64,000 bases of DNA from Minisyncoccota bacterium (GTDB lineage: Bacteria > Patescibacteriota > Minisyncoccia > Phycocordibacterales > JABMNX01). The position numbers and the translations under genes are program-made. Under the pieces are notes generated by a model. It was not told where the DNA came from, did no database searches, and saw only the letters and a program-made list of their open reading frames with translations. This document shows, one piece after another, positions 4,365-59,039 of the stretch. The stretch covers positions 140,609-204,608 of the forward strand of contig OZ244961.1 in the NCBI GenBank assembly GCA_965222715.1, in the 5' to 3' direction. Each line of letters opens with the position of its first letter. The first letter of the stretch is position 1.

Positions 4365-4385
4365 GTTTTACACTCACTACACAAA

Positions 4386-8240: not shown

Positions 8241-8269
8241 GTATAGATTTTGGAGAGGTGGCAGAGTGG
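8241..8269 (+). repeat. direct repeat of the tRNA-Ser(GGA) 5' end plus 7 upstream bp (truncated tRNA 5' duplicate)
   Basis: GTATA.ATTTTGGAGAGGTGGCAGAGTGG recurs at 8359-8389; followed by a 13-bp perfect hairpin GAAGAAACACAAActgcTTTGTGTTTCTTC. Confidence 0.7.
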
Positions 8270-8367
8270 AAGAAACACAAACTGCTTTGTGTTTCTTCCG
8301 AAGCGTAGCGAAGGAGGACGACCCGAAGCCACCTCGTCCTGTAAGGCCAAAATACGAAGTATATTTT

Positions 8368-13346: not shown

Positions 13347-13680
13347 TAGCTTGTATTGGGTAGTTACTGGATATAGTTTCTATATCTAGAGGAAAGTCCG
13401 AACACGTCCACGTAAGTGGAGAAGGGTAGCGGGTAACACCCGTCTAGGGCAACCTAAGAGGTGCGAGCAGAGACGCCTAATTCGAAAGATGAGGGACTCC
13501 TTCGGGAGTAGCTCTGGTGGAAACACTAGAAGTGAAACGGCTAAATCCTTACCTACGTGCAAGGCCGTGCTGAGTTTAACTCAGAGTGCCGCTTGAGGTG
13601 TACAGTGATGTACATCCCAGATAAATGACTACCGTCGTCATTCGTGGCGATACAGAATTCGGCTTATAGATACAAGTGCA
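13347..13680 (+). ncRNA. rnpB: RNase P RNA (bacterial type A)
   Basis: GGAAAGTCCGAACAC P4 strand, AGGGCAACC-type internal segment, 3' ACAGAATTCGGCTTATAG matching the conserved ACAGAAcCCGGCUUA; P1 pairing GCTTGTAT/ATACAAG; P3 hairpin 13362-13386. Confidence 0.8.
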
Positions 13681-13690
13681 ACATATGGTA

Positions 13691-21183: not shown

Positions 21184-21255
21184 GCCCCTGTAGTTAAATG
21201 GATATAACAATCCCGTCCTAAGGGATTATTCTGGGTTCGATTCCTGGCGGGGGCA
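21184..21255 (+). tRNA. tRNA-Arg (anticodon CCT)
   Basis: cloverleaf by eye; anticodon loop GTCCTAA; followed by CCG, not CCA. Confidence 0.8.
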
Positions 21256-21282
21256 CCGAAATTAAAATACTGATATAAAACC

Positions 21283-21421
21283 AGTGTTTTAATTTTGGTC
21301 TCAGGAATCGAAAGACGGAACGAGCGGTAGCGAGTGAGTCCGGGTAGGAGCCACTTCGTACTATTCCAGTATACTGGCATAGTACGTTAGTGAGCTGACA
21401 CCGATTCCTGGCGGGGGCACA
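21283..21421 (+). repeat. tRNA 3'-flank structured element, copy A (ends in 19-nt repeat of the tRNA-Arg 3' end)
   Basis: core TCGAAAGACGGAACGAGCGGTAGCGAGTGAGTCCGGGTAGGAGCCACTT-hairpin-TAGTGAGCTGACACCG then CGATTCCTGGCGGGGGCAC, identical to 21237-21255; homologous to copies at 48970-49098, 57131-57228 and 58836-58952. Confidence 0.7.
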
Positions 21422-21586
21422 AAACTGCAAGAAAACCATACTTACGTCTCATTTCTTGCGTTTTGTGAAGTGGGGCGATATCAAGTGAAACGAGACCATC
21501 AGCCAGTGTTGTACTCTCCATACTATGAATTACATTCCTTGTTTTATTTAGCACTTTAAAAATGTATATGGTTTAATTTATTTATC

Positions 21587-47225: not shown

Positions 47226-47597
47226 ATGTTCACTAAATATCTTTACCTGTTTGTTGCAGTTACCACACTCTTTTTCTTAAGTGATATTCCGCATGCTTTT
47301 GCGCAGTCGGGTGGTTGTGACTCTGGCACTGGGTTACGTAACCCTCTTAATAATATTTGTAGCTTTGAAGATTTTGTTGAACTTCTGCTTGAGGCAGTAG
47401 TGCGCATCGGACTTCCAATTGCAGTGCTCTTTATTGTGTACTCTGGATTTCTCTTTGCAACAGCTCAGGGTAATGAAGAAAAAATCAAAAAAGCAAAACA
47501 AGCGTTTTTCTACACAGTTATTGGTATTACCATCTTCCTTGGGGCATGGGCGCTTGCGGTCATTATTGGAAACACCATACAGCTCCTTGCTGGATAG
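47226..47597 (+). CDS. TrbC/VirB2-like pilin-type small membrane protein (paralog 1)
   Basis: 123 aa: signal peptide, Cys pair, TM1-charged loop (QGNEEKIKKAK)-TM2 topology. Confidence 0.5.
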   Translation: MFTKYLYLFVAVTTLFFLSDIPHAFAQSGGCDSGTGLRNPLNNICSFEDFVELLLEAVVRIGLPIAVLFIVYSGFLFATAQGNEEKIKKAKQAFFYTVIGITIFLGAWALAVIIGNTIQLLAG

Positions 47598-47601
47598 TAG
47601 T

Positions 47602-47904
47602 ATGAAAAGAACATTTCTTCTTAGCACAACATTGTTTCTCACCCCATTTCTTGCACTTGCTGCCCCAAGTAATTTTCCTGAACTTGTTGGTCTCTTTATT
47701 TTCTATATTAATCTTATTATCCCACTAATAATTGCACTTGCAGTTCTCGGTTTCTTTTGGGGTGTTGCGCAATATATACTTGCATCGAAAGATACCTCAA
47801 AGATACAAGACGCCCGAAAAATGATCCTCTGGAGCCTGATTGCAATCTTTGTTATGACATCAGTGTGGGGAATACTACGGGTGCTTGCTAATACATTTCT
47901 ATAG
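47602..47904 (+). CDS. TrbC/VirB2-like pilin-type small membrane protein (paralog 2)
   Basis: 100 aa from ATG 47602: signal peptide, FFWGVAQYILASKD...WSLIAIFVMTSVWG two-helix core. Confidence 0.5.
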   Translation: MKRTFLLSTTLFLTPFLALAAPSNFPELVGLFIFYINLIIPLIIALAVLGFFWGVAQYILASKDTSKIQDARKMILWSLIAIFVMTSVWGILRVLANTFL

Positions 47905-48020
47905 ACTACTAGTGTATATGTAATCCACAGCAGTTCATTGCCTAGCATCTTATAACCCAGCTATGATACTATAAAGTGTACAGGTTATTTATTAGCACTT
48001 AATAATACGTAATTATTACA

Positions 48021-48371
48021 ATGAAAAAGTTTTTAATACTTCCAGGATTCCTTGCAGGTCTTCTTGTTGCTCCACTTGCAGTACAGGCACAAGGTGATCT
48101 CCAGGGTGTCATCACTGTCTTTTCAGACCTTATCAACCTCGCTATTCCTCTAGTGCTTGCACTTGCAGTACTCTACTTCTTCTGGGGACTCGCAATGTTT
48201 GTGCTTGCTCAAGGAAATGAAGACAAGCGTAAGGAAGGACGAGATATCATGATTTACGGTATCATTGCTCTCTTTGTGATGGTGTCCGTCTGGGGTCTTA
48301 TCGGAATCTTACAAGATACATTTGGTGTAGATAACACTAACCCAATTGTCCCTGAAGAGATTCGAAGGTAG
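48021..48371 (+). CDS. TrbC/VirB2-like pilin-type small membrane protein (paralog 3)
   Basis: 116 aa: signal peptide ending AQA, LYFFWGLAMFVLAQGNEDKRKEGRD...VMVSVWG core. Confidence 0.5.
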   Translation: MKKFLILPGFLAGLLVAPLAVQAQGDLQGVITVFSDLINLAIPLVLALAVLYFFWGLAMFVLAQGNEDKRKEGRDIMIYGIIALFVMVSVWGLIGILQDTFGVDNTNPIVPEEIRR

Positions 48372-48405
48372 GGTGTCTCTCAAGGTTCTCTAACGTATTT
48401 TCTTT

Positions 48406-48648
48406 ATGTCAGTTGATGACTTAGTGAGTCGCATCTCACAGTACATTATCGATCCAATCATTCTGCTCTTGTTCGCGCTTGGGTTGTTGTACTTCCTCTG
48501 GGGTGTTGCCATATTTATATGGCAGTCTGATAGTGAAGATGCTCGGAAGAAGGGTGTACAACATATGCTTTGGGGAATCATTGGAATGTTTATTATGATT
48601 GCCGCACTCGGTATCATAAATCTCATTGAAGGAACCTTTGGTTTGTAA
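48406..48648 (+). CDS. TrbC/VirB2-like pilin-type small membrane protein (paralog 4, no signal peptide)
   Basis: 80 aa: LYFLWGVAIFIWQSDSEDARKKG...IMIAALG core. Confidence 0.45.
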   Translation: MSVDDLVSRISQYIIDPIILLLFALGLLYFLWGVAIFIWQSDSEDARKKGVQHMLWGIIGMFIMIAALGIINLIEGTFGL

Positions 48649-48667
48649 GTATAGACTTAGCTAAAAT

Positions 48668-48698
48668 AAAAAACGCCAAAGCTGCTCTTGGCGTTTTT
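48668..48698 (+). terminator. conserved palindromic terminator repeat copy (AAAACGCCAAAGCTGCTCTTGGCGTTTT)
   Basis: stem plus T-run immediately after the last pilin-like gene. Confidence 0.6.
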
Positions 48699-48759
48699 TA
48701 TTTTAATTGAAAAAAAGAAGTAAAGCGTGTATTATTTTTCTTTGTATTGATTACTCAGA

Positions 48760-48832
48760 CCGCCTATAGCTCAGTTGGTAGAGCAACCGCCTCTTAAGCG
48801 GTGGGTCCTAGGTTCGAGTCCTAGTGGGCGGA
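48760..48832 (+). tRNA. tRNA-Lys (anticodon CTT)
   Basis: cloverleaf by eye with C1-G72; anticodon loop CTCTTAA. Confidence 0.75.
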
Positions 48833-48859
48833 CTGAGTAATCAATAAGAACATACACAA

Positions 48860-48941
48860 GCGCGGGTGGTGAAATTGGTAGACACGCTTGCCTTAGGAGC
48901 AAGTGCCTTCGGGCATGGAGGTTCGAGTCCTCTCCCGCGCA
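48860..48941 (+). tRNA. tRNA-Leu (anticodon TAG)
   Basis: cloverleaf by eye, long variable arm; anticodon loop CTTAGGA. Confidence 0.8.
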
Positions 48942-48969
48942 CAAAAAAGAATTTAAAACCAATTTGAAT

Positions 48970-49098
48970 TTTCGGTGCCCGGGACGGGAGTCGGTGTCAG
49001 CTCACTAAGCGTTATGCGCTAAGTGGCTCCTACCCGGACTCACTCGCTATCGCTCGTTCCGTCTTTCGACTCCCTTGAACCAAAATTAAAACACTGAC
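48970..49098 (-). repeat. tRNA 3'-flank structured element, copy B (24-nt repeat of the tRNA-Leu(TAA) 3' end)
   Basis: minus-strand reading: CAGTGTTTTAATTTTGGT-TCAAGGGAGTCGAAAGACGGAACGAGCGATAGCGAGTGAGTCCGGGTAGGAGCCACTT-hairpin-TAGTGAGCTGACACCGAC-GTCCCGGGCACCGAAA. Confidence 0.7.
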
Positions 49099-49121
49099 CC
49101 TCGCCAGTGTTTCAATTTCGG

Positions 49122-49202
49122 TGCCCGGGACGGGAGTCGAACCCGTATCCTAGAAGGACCCGATTTTAAGTCGAGCGCGTATACCAATTCCGCCACCCGG
49201 GC
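49122..49202 (-). tRNA. tRNA-Leu (anticodon TAA)
   Basis: cloverleaf by eye, long variable arm; anticodon loop CTTAAAA; followed by CCG. Confidence 0.8.
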
Positions 49203-49240
49203 AATAAGCAAAGCTCTCACGTATTGGAGAATTTTACTAG

Positions 49241-49312
49241 AGGCACGGGCGGGAATCGAACCCGCGCATCGCGGTTTTGCAGACCGCTGTGTTACCACTT
49301 CACCACCGTGCC
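49241..49312 (-). tRNA. tRNA-Cys (anticodon GCA)
   Basis: cloverleaf by eye, U73; anticodon loop CTGCAAA. Confidence 0.85.
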
Positions 49313-49454
49313 AAATTTTAATTAGTCTATCACGATTCCCGCCCGTCTCGGGCGGTCTCGATCCTTACAGGATCAGTACAGGTTGTCGATATTTTACTTC
49401 GTCCCTCATAAAATATCTGACAACCTTTTTCGACGCTACGCAATCTCGCGTCTC

Positions 49455-49508
49455 AACCCGCGCATCGCGGTTTTGCAGACCGCTGTGTTACCACTTCACC
49501 ACCGTGCC
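49455..49508 (-). pseudogene. truncated duplicate of tRNA-Cys (5' two-thirds only, no T-arm 3' strand or acceptor 3')
   Basis: 54 nt identical to 49259-49312, then diverges into long hairpins (49383-49425, GATCCTgtaAGGATC, CCGCCCGagaCGGGCGG). Confidence 0.7.
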
Positions 49509-49519
49509 TTTTTATTTTC

Positions 49520-49849
49520 TTACTCTTCTATTTCTCGAGAAATATCATCAATATGTTGTCGATGTTTTTCTCCAGTATCAATTTCAAACTCAACAAAAGG
49601 AATTCGTTTAGAATGCATCCGTTTTTTTAGATATTCCTTGAATTCACTCCGTTTTCTTCGTGCAAAATGTAGCGCCTGAGTCTCGTGTGTTTCCGGATAG
49701 ACGGTAAAATATACCGTTGCTCGTTTAAAGTCTTTTGAGATACTCACATTCGTTACTGTAATAAGTGATACACGGTTAGACTCTCGACTTAAAAATTCAG
49801 CCGCTACCTCTTGTATGTGTTTTGATACCTGATCACTTCTCTGCGACAT
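49520..49849 (-). CDS. rbfA: ribosome-binding factor A
   Basis: 109 aa immediately downstream of infB; KRATVYFTVYPE resembles the RbfA core. Confidence 0.6.
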   Translation of the reverse strand: MSQRSDQVSKHIQEVAAEFLSRESNRVSLITVTNVSISKDFKRATVYFTVYPETHETQALHFARRKRSEFKEYLKKRMHSKRIPFVEFEIDTGEKHRQHIDDISREIEE

Positions 49850-57018: not shown

Positions 57019-57130
57019 TTTATAGCTTATTGGTGGGGGATTTGGCGCCAGTTCTAAACTCACTCTGTTCGTTAAGAACTCGCTGCCCCGTCGTTCAAAT
57101 CACTCTCGGTAGGAAATTTATGATTCCCTA

Positions 57131-57228
57131 GGCGTCAGCTCACTAACCTCAAAATAGTTTTGTTAACAAAACTATTTTGAGGAAGTGGCTCCTGCCCGAG
57201 CTCGCCGTCGTTCGTTCCTCACGACATG
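57131..57228 (-). repeat. tRNA 3'-flank structured element, copy D (degenerate, 3' of tRNA-Tyr)
   Basis: minus-strand GGAACGAACGACGGCGAGCTCGGGCAGGAGCCACTTCCTCAAAATAGTTTTGTTAACAAAACTATTTTGAGGTTAGTGAGCTGACGCC; nearly identical to copy C in the hairpin region. Confidence 0.6.
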
Positions 57229-57285
57229 GCTCCGCTTCACAAAACGCAGAAAACCAGACGCAGGTCTGGTTTTCTTGCAGTTTTG

Positions 57286-57369
57286 TGCGCCGGGAGGGAT
57301 TTGAACCCCCGTAGGACTAAGTCCGTCAGATTTACAGTCTGATGCAATTGACCACTCTGCCACCGACGC
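57286..57369 (-). tRNA. tRNA-Tyr (anticodon GTA)
   Basis: cloverleaf by eye, long variable arm, A73; anticodon loop CTGTAAA. Confidence 0.85.
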
Positions 57370-57394
57370 ATTTCACATTCCGTTATATATTTTA

Positions 57395-57467
57395 GGACGT
57401 TACGGACACGTCCGTCAGATTCTTAACATTATTGGTCTGAAGCAACTAACCACTCTGCCACCGACGC
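57395..57467 (-). pseudogene. decayed partial duplicate of tRNA-Tyr (acceptor 5', D-arm, anticodon arm with 15-nt loop, no T-arm)
   Basis: TGCGTCGGTGGCAGAGTGG identical to the tRNA-Tyr 5' end, then diverged TTCAGAC-15nt-TCTGACGGAC. Confidence 0.6.
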
Positions 57468-57577
57468 AATGTGGCCTATTTTAGCCTGTTTGTCCTGTTT
57501 TCTCAACCCTTCTGTAACAAGATTTATACAACTATACAACTTGTATCATTGTTTTCATCAAGCTACTATTAGGTGTA

Positions 57578-58701: not shown

Positions 58702-58772
58702 GGGCCTATAGTTCAGTGGTAGAATAACGGTCTCCAAAACCGTCGACCGAGGTTCGAGTCCTCGTGGGCCCG
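58702..58772 (+). tRNA. tRNA-Trp (anticodon CCA)
   Basis: cloverleaf by eye, G73; anticodon loop CTCCAAA. Confidence 0.85.
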
Positions 58773-58835
58773 CAATGATACAAAACAATAGCGTTTAGCT
58801 ATTATGTTGTAACTATCATTTCGAGGATTCAAGTG

Positions 58836-58952
58836 GACTCGAAAGACGGAGCCGAAGGCGAGTCCGGGCAGGAGCCACTTCCTCAAAATATTTTATGTTA
58901 ACAAAAGTATTTTGAGGTTAGTGAGCTGACGCCGAGTCCTCGTGGGCCCGCA
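58836..58952 (+). repeat. tRNA 3'-flank structured element, copy C (21-nt repeat of the tRNA-Trp 3' end)
   Basis: GGACTCGAAAGACGGAGCCGAAGGCGAGTCCGGGCAGGAGCCACTT-hairpin(CCTCAAAATA...TATTTTGAGG)-TTAGTGAGCTGACGCCGAGTCCTCGTGGGCCCGCAA. Confidence 0.7.
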
Positions 58953-59039
58953 AAACATTTTTCATACACCTTAGAATCCACCCCTCTTACTATTTCGTCA
59001 TATGAAGAAATAGTAAGATAGTGTGTTACGTAGAATCTG

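Follow-up and report, generated by a model that had tools for sequence, protein, structure and literature searches.

Analysis of a 64,000 nucleotide (nt) stretch of a Minisyncoccota bacterium genome (contig OZ244961.1, positions 140,609 to 204,608; hereafter the window) identified a 158-nt element lacking an open reading frame (ORF) immediately downstream of the tRNA-Leu(UAA) gene. This element, termed copy B, belongs to a large family of folded elements of ~150 nt with a common anatomy and fold, precise junctions, multiple copies at multiple tRNAs, turnover between relatives, and stacks of relics. Copy B is tentatively interpreted as a miniature mobile element, guide-directed and non-autonomous, whose insertion point in tRNA-Leu(UAA) lies between T55 and C56, with an estimated probability of approximately 45%. 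The matching of its arms to the local tRNA suggests a small mobile element choosing its target by base pairing, and from these features we infer that the element is mobile at all, that the antisense arm serves as a guide, and what form the intermediate takes. The family is real and recurrent and, to our knowledge, has not been described to date.

The tRNA-Leu(UAA) gene (49120-49202, minus strand) was an intact functional copy according to ARAGORN and scored 59.4 bits with the Rfam tRNA model (Rfam 15 was used for all RNA family scans); its T54, T55, and C56 correspond to positions 49141, 49140, and 49139. An earlier note made from the sequence alone had placed the element at 48962-49120, which brackets it, and was correct in its descriptions of the core (present twice), the shared CAGTGTTTTAATTTTGGT, the antisense arm, and the 24-nt repeat. 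All features of copy B lie on the minus strand. The first copy of the direct repeat, CGACTCCCGTCCCGGGCACCGAAA (49116-49139), comprises tRNA nt 56-76 plus three to four trailer bases and reads TTTCGGTGCCCGGGACGGGAGTCG on the plus strand, and its second and exact copy, the right arm (48970-48993), comprises tRNA nt 56-76 plus GAAA. Hairpin H (49079-49122) is formed by the 5' strand ACCGAAATTGAAACACTG, the loop GCGAGGGT, and the 3' strand CAGTGTTTTAATTTTGGT, and is followed by the linker TCAA (49075-49078) and a 10-nt antisense arm, GGGAGTCGAA (49065-49074), the exact reverse complement of tRNA-Leu nt 54-63 (TTCGACTCCC). The antisense arm forms the 5' strand of helix P1 and the first 8 nt of the right arm its 3' strand, and the conserved three-way-junction core of 71 nt (48994-49064) was supported by RNAfold, the covariance model R1 (96.7 bits), and covariation. 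Two earlier descriptions were incomplete: the upstream hairpin opens inside the 3' end of the tRNA at the discriminator A73 (49122), and the left terminus indeed contains the complement of the T-loop, but is antisense to nt 54-63 and elsewhere in the family to as much as the whole tRNA 3' part. With perfect arms and the 24-nt repeat, copy B is a well-preserved member.

The exact core GACGGAACGAGCG(A/G)TAGCGAGTGAGTCCGGGTAGGAGCCACTT occurred at two sites in the window, at 49021-49063 (minus strand) and, within copy A, at 21314-21356 (plus strand), compared to none expected from shuffles. Copy A (21258-21420, plus strand) follows tRNA-Arg(CCT) (21184-21257) and is composed of an antisense arm at 21302-21312, a core at 21313-21401, and a right arm at 21402-21420. 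The 3' strand of hairpin H was identical between the two copies (18 of 18 positions; 49079-49096 on the minus strand and 21282-21299 on the plus strand) and the core matched at 42 of 43, while the hairpin loops and the P3 tips were unrelated. Two G-to-A differences between the antisense arms would give G-T wobbles against the other tRNA. Copy C (58774-58953, plus strand), located after tRNA-Trp (58702-58773), contains an antisense arm at 58835-58843, a core of variant form at 58844-58932, and a right arm at 58933-58953, and matched the covariance model at 58831-58954 on the plus strand. The left and right arms track the local tRNA in every copy of the window, copies A, B, and C have the other parts in common, and hairpin H bears no sequence relation to the P2 and P3 hairpins. 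As had been proposed, copy B is not a plain duplicate of copy A, and both its ends are replaced by local tRNA sequence.

One and the same three-way junction was predicted by RNAfold for all three copies (z-scores between -3 and -4.4). In this fold P1 is formed by the antisense arm paired with the right arm, and J12 is AGA. P2 consists of CGGA/UCCG with a variable small hairpin and an invariant GAG bulge (49035-49061 in copy B), and P3 (48993-49034 in copy B) of GGY/RCC (GGU/ACC in copy B), an AGG/GAC internal loop, AGCCACUU/UUAGUG-A-GCU, and a variable tip (AGCGCAUAACGCU in copy B). Model R1 was built from seven copies and covariation was counted on 123 model hits representing 116 distinct sequences. 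Standard pairs occupied 92.5% of cells, compared to 77% in shuffled controls and 23-39% with the partner slid, and both-side changes were found in 26 of 29 pairs, values attained by none of 500 shuffles, although the alignment was fitted to the covariance model such that the pair counts lean toward the fold and the numbers are somewhat inflated. The P3a pair was mostly C-G (78 sequences), with U-A (27) and G-C (two) as variants, the P2 extension covaried, and P3b changed from GCCAC/GUGAGC to GGUUC/GAAACC in L151 (L-numbers are labels of public loci outside the window, derived from genomes or metagenomes). Covarying helices included ones that owe nothing to the tRNA. In P2, G-U pairs were frequent and non-pairs almost absent, and therefore the fold belongs to the tRNA-sense strand, as RNA or top-strand DNA. 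The core fold is strongly supported by covariation and qualifies as a structured non-coding RNA, constituting a new RNA motif of ~70 nt with roughly 50 conserved positions that is well defined for biochemistry.

Against this background, it is exceedingly improbable that copy B is an ordinary tRNA terminator or trailer resembling the other copies by chance or local duplication. Hairpin H is AT-rich like a terminator and sits at the terminator position, but it is followed by ~100 nt of conserved structure and was not scored as canonical, and a terminator and promoter scan of 48650-49600 returned neither a canonical rho-independent terminator nor a promoter belonging to the element. The exact core found twice where none was expected, the 157 cores elsewhere, and the covariation also argue against a terminator. 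A generic terminator had already been discounted in the earlier note, in agreement with the lack of a canonical terminator, the presence of the element at only some tRNAs, and the conserved three-way-junction core. Its count of four tRNAs on this strand was in error because tRNA-Lys(CTT) (48760-48833) and tRNA-Leu(TAG) (48860-48942) lie on the plus strand and converge on the element, leaving only tRNA-Cys and tRNA-Leu(TAA) on the strand of the element. The Lys/Leu(TAG) pair (48760-48942) was inverted compared to L151, L152, and L154, in which all four tRNAs of the infB-rbfA locus are on one strand, and the inversion breakpoint abuts copy B. A row of small type IV secretion system (T4SS)-pilin-like membrane protein genes (47226-48648, plus strand) adjoins this tRNA cluster, an arrangement conserved in relatives.

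The core 21-mer was identified in 39 species-representative genome stretches and a two-block core pattern in 111 metagenome stretches, giving a set of 150 loci with 157 cores. Every named source belonged to the Patescibacteria, including Saccharibacteria, Paceibacteria/Parcubacteria, Kaiser-, Vogel-, and Peregrinibacteria, and no core match was found in viral contigs, phage records, or plasmid collections. The superfamily is broader than the search pattern, as other conserved cores with the same arm logic were present in L035 (3420-3590) and L154 (6740-7080), including AACAAGGAGAGGGGGTCGGGG... after tRNA-Asp and variants of the form GACCAAAAGCACTTAG...TTAGTGACTTGTGGT. A gathering-threshold Rfam 15 scan of the window returned tRNAs and RNase P only, and a permissive scan (E up to 10) of copies A and B and the copies at tRNA-Tyr gave tRNA-derived or noise matches only. 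This null result covers the hammerhead, twister, twister-sister, pistol, hatchet, hepatitis delta virus (HDV)-like, group I and group II intron, and IS605-orfB motifs. The RNase P RNA (class A; 13348-13682, plus strand) had a modest score of 128 bits. Candidate likenesses to the hammerhead core (CUGANGA/GAAA), a k-turn, and group II domain V were superficial and by eye, with misfits in the junction strand lengths and G8. A full-text literature search did not retrieve a description of the element, the nearest paper being on group I introns in Patescibacteria tRNAs, according to which 95 complete genomes were free of group II introns (PMC13011429).

Intact tRNAs whose 3' part was repeated were located 73-160 nt upstream of 80 of the 157 cores. 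These are type 1 copies, defined by a 3' repeat starting at C56, while ~25 cores were type 2 with a junction near G71|C72 and only CAC(A) repeated; the remainder were tandem stacks, at contig edges, or behind intron-bearing tRNAs missed by ARAGORN. Group I intron-like sequence (gatgatatagtcc) was observed in tRNAs upstream of copies in L010, L033/L141, L044, L064, and L142, which ARAGORN misses and which fit the published abundance of such introns in Patescibacteria. The 72 clean, non-redundant type 1 copies used for the anatomy statistics span 30 anticodons. The right junction was invariant, consisting of GACRC followed by C56, and the exact repeat was most often 19 nt long (26 copies), followed by 20 nt (10 copies) and 21 nt (seven copies), the modal 19 nt extending from C56 through the discriminator plus one base. 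The sharp duplication peak of 19-21 nt is bounded by tRNA landmarks, and is just 3-5 nt in type 2 copies. The element is always on the tRNA strand and immediately downstream, with a minimal architecture of 110-190 nt recurring 80 times at constant spacing.

The antisense arm lies directly against the core, and its complementarity to the real tRNA begins at T54, covering T54 and T55 in 57 of 65 copies, in which the GAA of an apparent GAAAGA is the complement of T54-T55-C56. In tRNAs with TGCAA T-loops the antisense reads TTGCA (GAA to GCA), covarying with G55 (L011, L027, L084, L090, L120, and L138). Since complementarity starts at T54, the antisense arm spans the 55|56 junction and the right arm begins at 56. 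The arm can pair with the real tRNA or with the downstream copy, and where these two differ it agreed with the tRNA in 12 cases versus nine for the right arm, showing no clear preference. In some subfamilies (e.g., L100 and the Leu copy of L154) the antisense is continuous over nt 54-76 plus trailer, in others the conserved small hairpin aGCAAACTGCTTTGCt interrupts it at the nt 65/66 boundary, and in the copies of the window the acceptor strand (nt 66-72) is left out. Variable modules are shared within genomes and not between orthologous sites: as qualitative examples, copies A and B share P2 and hairpin H, copy C and the tRNA-Tyr copy share the P3 tip, and similar sharing occurs in UBA3458, OZ253947, and ARS1360.

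These junctions would be accounted for if the inserted unit consisted of a replacement tRNA 3' end (nt 56-74), the trailer hairpin, the antisense segment, and the core ending in GACRC. The element-borne nt 56-74, seen as the first copy of the direct repeat, would keep the tRNA gene intact, and the original tRNA 3' end would be displaced downstream to remain as the 19-24-nt direct repeat, i.e., the right arm. The antisense segment, complementary to the target from T54 and spanning the insertion point, may be the guide that selects tRNA T-arms by Watson-Crick pairing. Both in the integrated and in the excised or single-stranded state, the antisense and sense arms would pair as P1 and close the junction, so that breaking and joining would take place at the foot of P1; if the intermediate is circular or single-stranded, the element's own sense arm would come after the core, with the same closed junction as the result. 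Folded recombination sites (CTX attP and integron attC) and guide-selected targets (IS200/IS605 and group II introns) have this geometry, which is why a guide-directed element is favored. The folded arm plus core, as RNA or single-stranded DNA, is the putative recombination substrate, and strand transfer would fall to a factor whose gene lies elsewhere or, possibly, to the core. Type 2 copies would follow the same architecture with the junction near G71|C72. Retroposition, in which a nick at 55|56 primes complementary DNA and the top strand snaps back, was considered for the same junctions and fits them, but was rejected because it leaves two features unaccounted for, namely the conserved small hairpin that interrupts the antisense arm and the identity of hairpin H between copies A and B.

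The strict orientation on the tRNA strand immediately downstream without a detected promoter of its own, the conserved fold with sense-strand G-U pairs, and the antisense pairing with the real tRNA through T54-T55, G55 covariation included, are also compatible with a cis-acting structured 3' trailer RNA or a facultative T-loop intron, the core of which would function in 3' processing, quality control, or regulation. In this alternative the antisense would pair with the nascent T-arm and 3' end, and the guide would align T54-T55 beside the downstream C56 for removal of the intervening piece. In the fold of the full transcript, the antisense likewise paired with the T-arm of the tRNA, and the downstream copy with its 5' acceptor strand. 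A potential example was found in L006 (2590-2780), which compared to its close relative L096 (4660-4900) has a 52-nt deletion corresponding to tRNA-Arg(UCU) nt 60-76 and hairpin H. As a result, this tRNA survives only as nt 1-59, the element, and nt 56-76, and in silico removal of the element gives a perfect tRNA. A systematic search for interrupted tRNAs identified L006 as the sole case among ~150, and it represents either a dead gene, a metagenome-assembled genome (MAG) artefact, or evidence that the element is removable from RNA. Other differences between these relatives included a 154-nt insert directly 5' of tRNA-Val(TAC) with a 7-nt acceptor-strand duplication (TGCGCGG) in L006 (4984-5138) that was absent in L096, which is a recent gain or loss of another tRNA-associated insert.

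The trailer or intron alternative is nevertheless doubtful: the subset of tRNAs carrying the element varies by genome, the element is absent at the orthologous tRNA in L152 and belongs to different subfamilies at the same tRNA in other relatives, and decayed copies are stacked and right arms decay. The element is also smaller than any self-splicing RNA known to us. In a related scenario that we regard as quite unlikely, the core would be a small catalytic RNA and the unit an RNA-level mobile element or facultative T-loop intron. GACRC would then lie at the helix base beside the 55|56 phosphodiester and the RNA may circularize or splice out of or into T-loops. The conserved junction nucleotides and the interrupted tRNA of L006 are indirect hints of such a ribozyme. 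If true, no smaller element capable of self-splicing or reverse splicing would be known, its target would be programmable, and L006 would be natural proof of removal.

Interpretation as a mobile element draws on turnover between relatives, compared across infB-rbfA-Cys-Leu(UAA)-Lys-Leu(TAG) synteny in genomes annotated as Pacebacteria or Kaiserbacteria with ~70% IF-2 identity. A comparison with relatives at tRNA-Leu(UAA) had been recommended in the earlier note and had the outcome anticipated there. The orthologous gene was found in four states, namely a hairpin without the core in L152, a decaying variant in L151, another subfamily (GGGGTCGAGAG...GTGACC) in L154, and copy B in the window. The downstream repeat had substitutions or deletions with the upstream tRNA intact in L002, L005, L017, L018, L024, L025, L034, L040, and L151, indicating that the downstream copy is dispensable. 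Stacks with the best-preserved copy nearest to the tRNA were found behind copy A, behind tRNA-Tyr (two copies), and behind tRNA-Lys in L154 (three to four copies). The relic directly behind the right arm of copy A (21418-21500, plus strand) is a decayed type 2 copy with the hairpin CACAAAACTGCAAG...GCGTTTTGTG followed by AAGTGGGGCG..., homologous to the copy behind tRNA-Tyr, and shows an older insertion pushed downstream. At tRNA-Gln, L122 (3368-3755) has two identical tandem 183-nt units versus one in the 99.9% identical L072 (4741-4945).

Several observations weigh against mobility. The L122 and L072 polymorphism could equally be due to unequal crossing-over between repeats, and no two near-identical strains were found of which one strictly lacks a single unit that the other carries. 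An exact match search with the window RbfA gave no result, and with the closest relatives at ~70% IF-2 identity there was no strain-level empty site for comparison. No integrase, transposase, reverse transcriptase, or nuclease recurred within 3.5 kb of the 150 loci, the 20 window ORFs tested were all housekeeping with no recombinase-type protein, and a cargo-bearing autonomous form was not found, nor any copy in the viral, phage, and plasmid collections. Retargeting of the arms is unexplained given that copies A and B share hairpin H and the core yet differ in their arms, and an element with the wrong 3' end would yield a chimeric single-copy tRNA that is probably dead. Finally, an RNA under host selection would likewise be consistent with a core that is conserved superphylum-wide and constantly oriented relative to the tRNA.

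The search for an enzyme also bears on the possibility that the copies are relic attachment (att) sites of larger tRNA-integrating prophages or islands with a tyrosine integrase, in which the repeat would be attL/attR with T-loop crossover and the core a conserved non-coding feature near attP that outlasts deletion of the cargo. The direct repeat of the tRNA 3' part from the T-loop to the tRNA end is present, and Williams is said to have described in 2002 that such a repeat starting in the T-loop is the signature of integrase-mediated integration. In L032 (5349-7620), 1.9 kb containing three ORFs (233, 149, and 130 amino acids) is bracketed by a nearly identical pair of copies at tRNA-Asp, an arrangement that looks like a composite, and in L035 1.6 kb separates the tRNA from a truncated core. 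However, none of the cargo ORFs in L032 and L035 encodes a recombinase, no tyrosine or serine recombinase gene was found in or beside the element, and no integrase was present at any of the ~150 loci, where clustering of 1,719 neighboring ORFs revealed housekeeping synteny (GatA, GatC, ValRS, Hsp20, and DivIC) and one helix-turn-helix (HTH) protein. In addition, the same 110-190-nt minimal architecture recurred 80 times with constant spacing, one core family at 30 tRNAs would demand unprecedented integrase flexibility, GACRC to the left of the repeat does not vary and does not mimic the T-stem, and the viral, phage, and plasmid collections lacked a match, rendering relic att sites unlikely.

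The order of a scaffold followed by a 19-21-nt tail would fit a guide RNA gene of the TnpB omega-RNA or Cas12k homing CRISPR RNA (crRNA) type, in which the core would be the scaffold, the tail the guide, and the tRNA gene the target of the protein. GGTT precedes the tRNA target as a candidate adjacent motif with the insertion exactly 3' of it, and the layout of motif, element, and guide-matching flank is the IS200/IS605 arrangement, with a putative likeness to Cas12k and TnpB systems. This explanation is very unlikely, as no TnpA(Y1), TnpB, IscB, or Cas12 gene was located near any copy, the restored tRNA recreates the motif and target such that a nuclease would be directed against the chromosome that encodes it, P1 already engages the initial 8-10 nt of the supposed guide, type 2 copies lack a long tail, and no Rfam family matched. 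Similarly, no adjacent ORF for the DEDD transposase of IS110/IS1111 was present at the element.

Overall, the window contains at least six copies or relics, behind tRNA-Arg, tRNA-Leu, tRNA-Trp, and tRNA-Tyr, extending the pair of copies A and B first recognized to copy C, two tRNA-Tyr copies, and the relic behind copy A. Downstream of tRNA-Tyr (57285-57369) on the minus strand, a type 2 copy (57110-57284) gave a divergent covariance-model match at 57110-57247, and its antisense GTTTTGTG pairs only with the tRNA end plus trailer CACAAAAC. It is followed by an older relic without P2 (57023-57106, minus strand) that was detected by the covariance model and has a decayed tRNA-Tyr-like right arm (CAAATCCCCCACC).

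Other tRNA-associated insertions were observed in the window. Upstream of the tRNA-Cys gene (49313-49508, minus strand), its nt 1-55 are exactly duplicated (49455-49508), and a structured insert of 142 nt includes GGGCGGGAATCG, the antisense of tRNA-Cys nt 56-67. The break is again at T55|C56 with the 5' part duplicated; the insert is orthologous in L151 (5850-6061) with covarying hairpins. A copy of the first 18-19 nt of tRNA-Ser(GGA) is located ~116 nt upstream with a short insert between (8244-8367, plus strand), and a diverged copy of the first 34 nt of tRNA-Tyr ~98 nt upstream, also with a short insert (57370-57468, minus strand). The tRNA-Ser(GGA) and tRNA-Tyr duplications look like further classes of tRNA-gene insertion. 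Approximately half of the window tRNA genes carry an insertion of the core family or the 5'-duplication classes. Such insertions account for tRNA fragments that confuse annotation and may drive rearrangements, a possible case being the inverted Lys/Leu(TAG) pair beside copy B. Near-identical palindromic terminator-like hairpins (AAAAACGCCAAGAGTACTCTTGGCGTTTTT) were also present behind genes and tRNAs at 4383, 23286, 28772, 41377, 41431, 48668, 56990, and 60590.

If mobile, the element would colonize essential single-copy tRNA genes without killing the host by combining a repair copy with base-paired targeting, in genomes of ~0.6-1 Mb that are otherwise strongly reduced. As its arms are readable from sequence, the specificity may be programmable and relevant to DNA- or RNA-insertion tools.

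Compared to known systems, the element shares with integrase islands and prophages in the T-loop the tRNA 3' direct repeat, the element-borne restoration of the tRNA, and older remnants pushed downstream. It differs in its size of 110-190 nt, the lack of integrase and cargo, one core at 30 tRNAs, a covarying three-way junction, and an antisense arm at a distance of 70-100 nt from the repeat where those systems have a core-type inverted repeat next to it. In the CTX phage attP hairpin (XerCD) and integron attC, inverted target-like arms ~100 nt apart likewise fold into a target-mimicking stem, with the same integrated order of antisense arm, loop, and sense arm/host hybrid; however, the present element lacks a dif or attI target as well as any connection to Xer or IntI, and its "loop" is a junction highly conserved across a superphylum.

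Variable target-complementary segments flanking a conserved fold, from which specificity can be read, and pairing across the insertion point (here T54-T55 plus 56-65) are also characteristic of the IS200/IS605 guide tetranucleotides, the exon- and intron-binding sites (EBS/IBS) of group II introns, and the bridge or seek RNAs of IS110/IS1111. In contrast, in the family described here the two arms are directed at one target segment instead of left and right halves, a repair copy of the displaced gene part is carried, and a transposase or reverse transcriptase is lacking. Specifically, it lacks the similar subterminal hairpins at both ends of IS200/IS605 and, in contrast to IS110/IS1111, has a single three-way junction with arms for one target segment. 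MITEs (miniature transposable elements with inverted repeats), repetitive extragenic palindromic (REP) sequences, bacterial interspersed mosaic elements (BIMEs), Correia elements, and Rickettsia palindromic elements are similarly short, multi-copy, non-coding, structured, and intergenic with decayed copies. In contrast, the inverted ends of the present family are target-derived and vary by copy with no identical element-specific terminal inverted repeats, the duplication of 19-24 nt appears to be bounded by tRNA landmarks instead of a fixed stagger, and the location at and orientation to the tRNA are strict. Finally, the group I tRNA introns of Patescibacteria share the hosts and are structured RNAs tied to tRNA genes mostly without protein genes, and several loci carry both an element and a group I intron. 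Those introns occupy the anticodon loop, have lengths of several hundred nt and Rfam matches, and undergo splicing in vitro (Nakagawa et al., 2026; PMC13011429), whereas the element lies behind or within the T-loop, has a core of ~70-100 nt with no Rfam match, and normally follows an intact tRNA.

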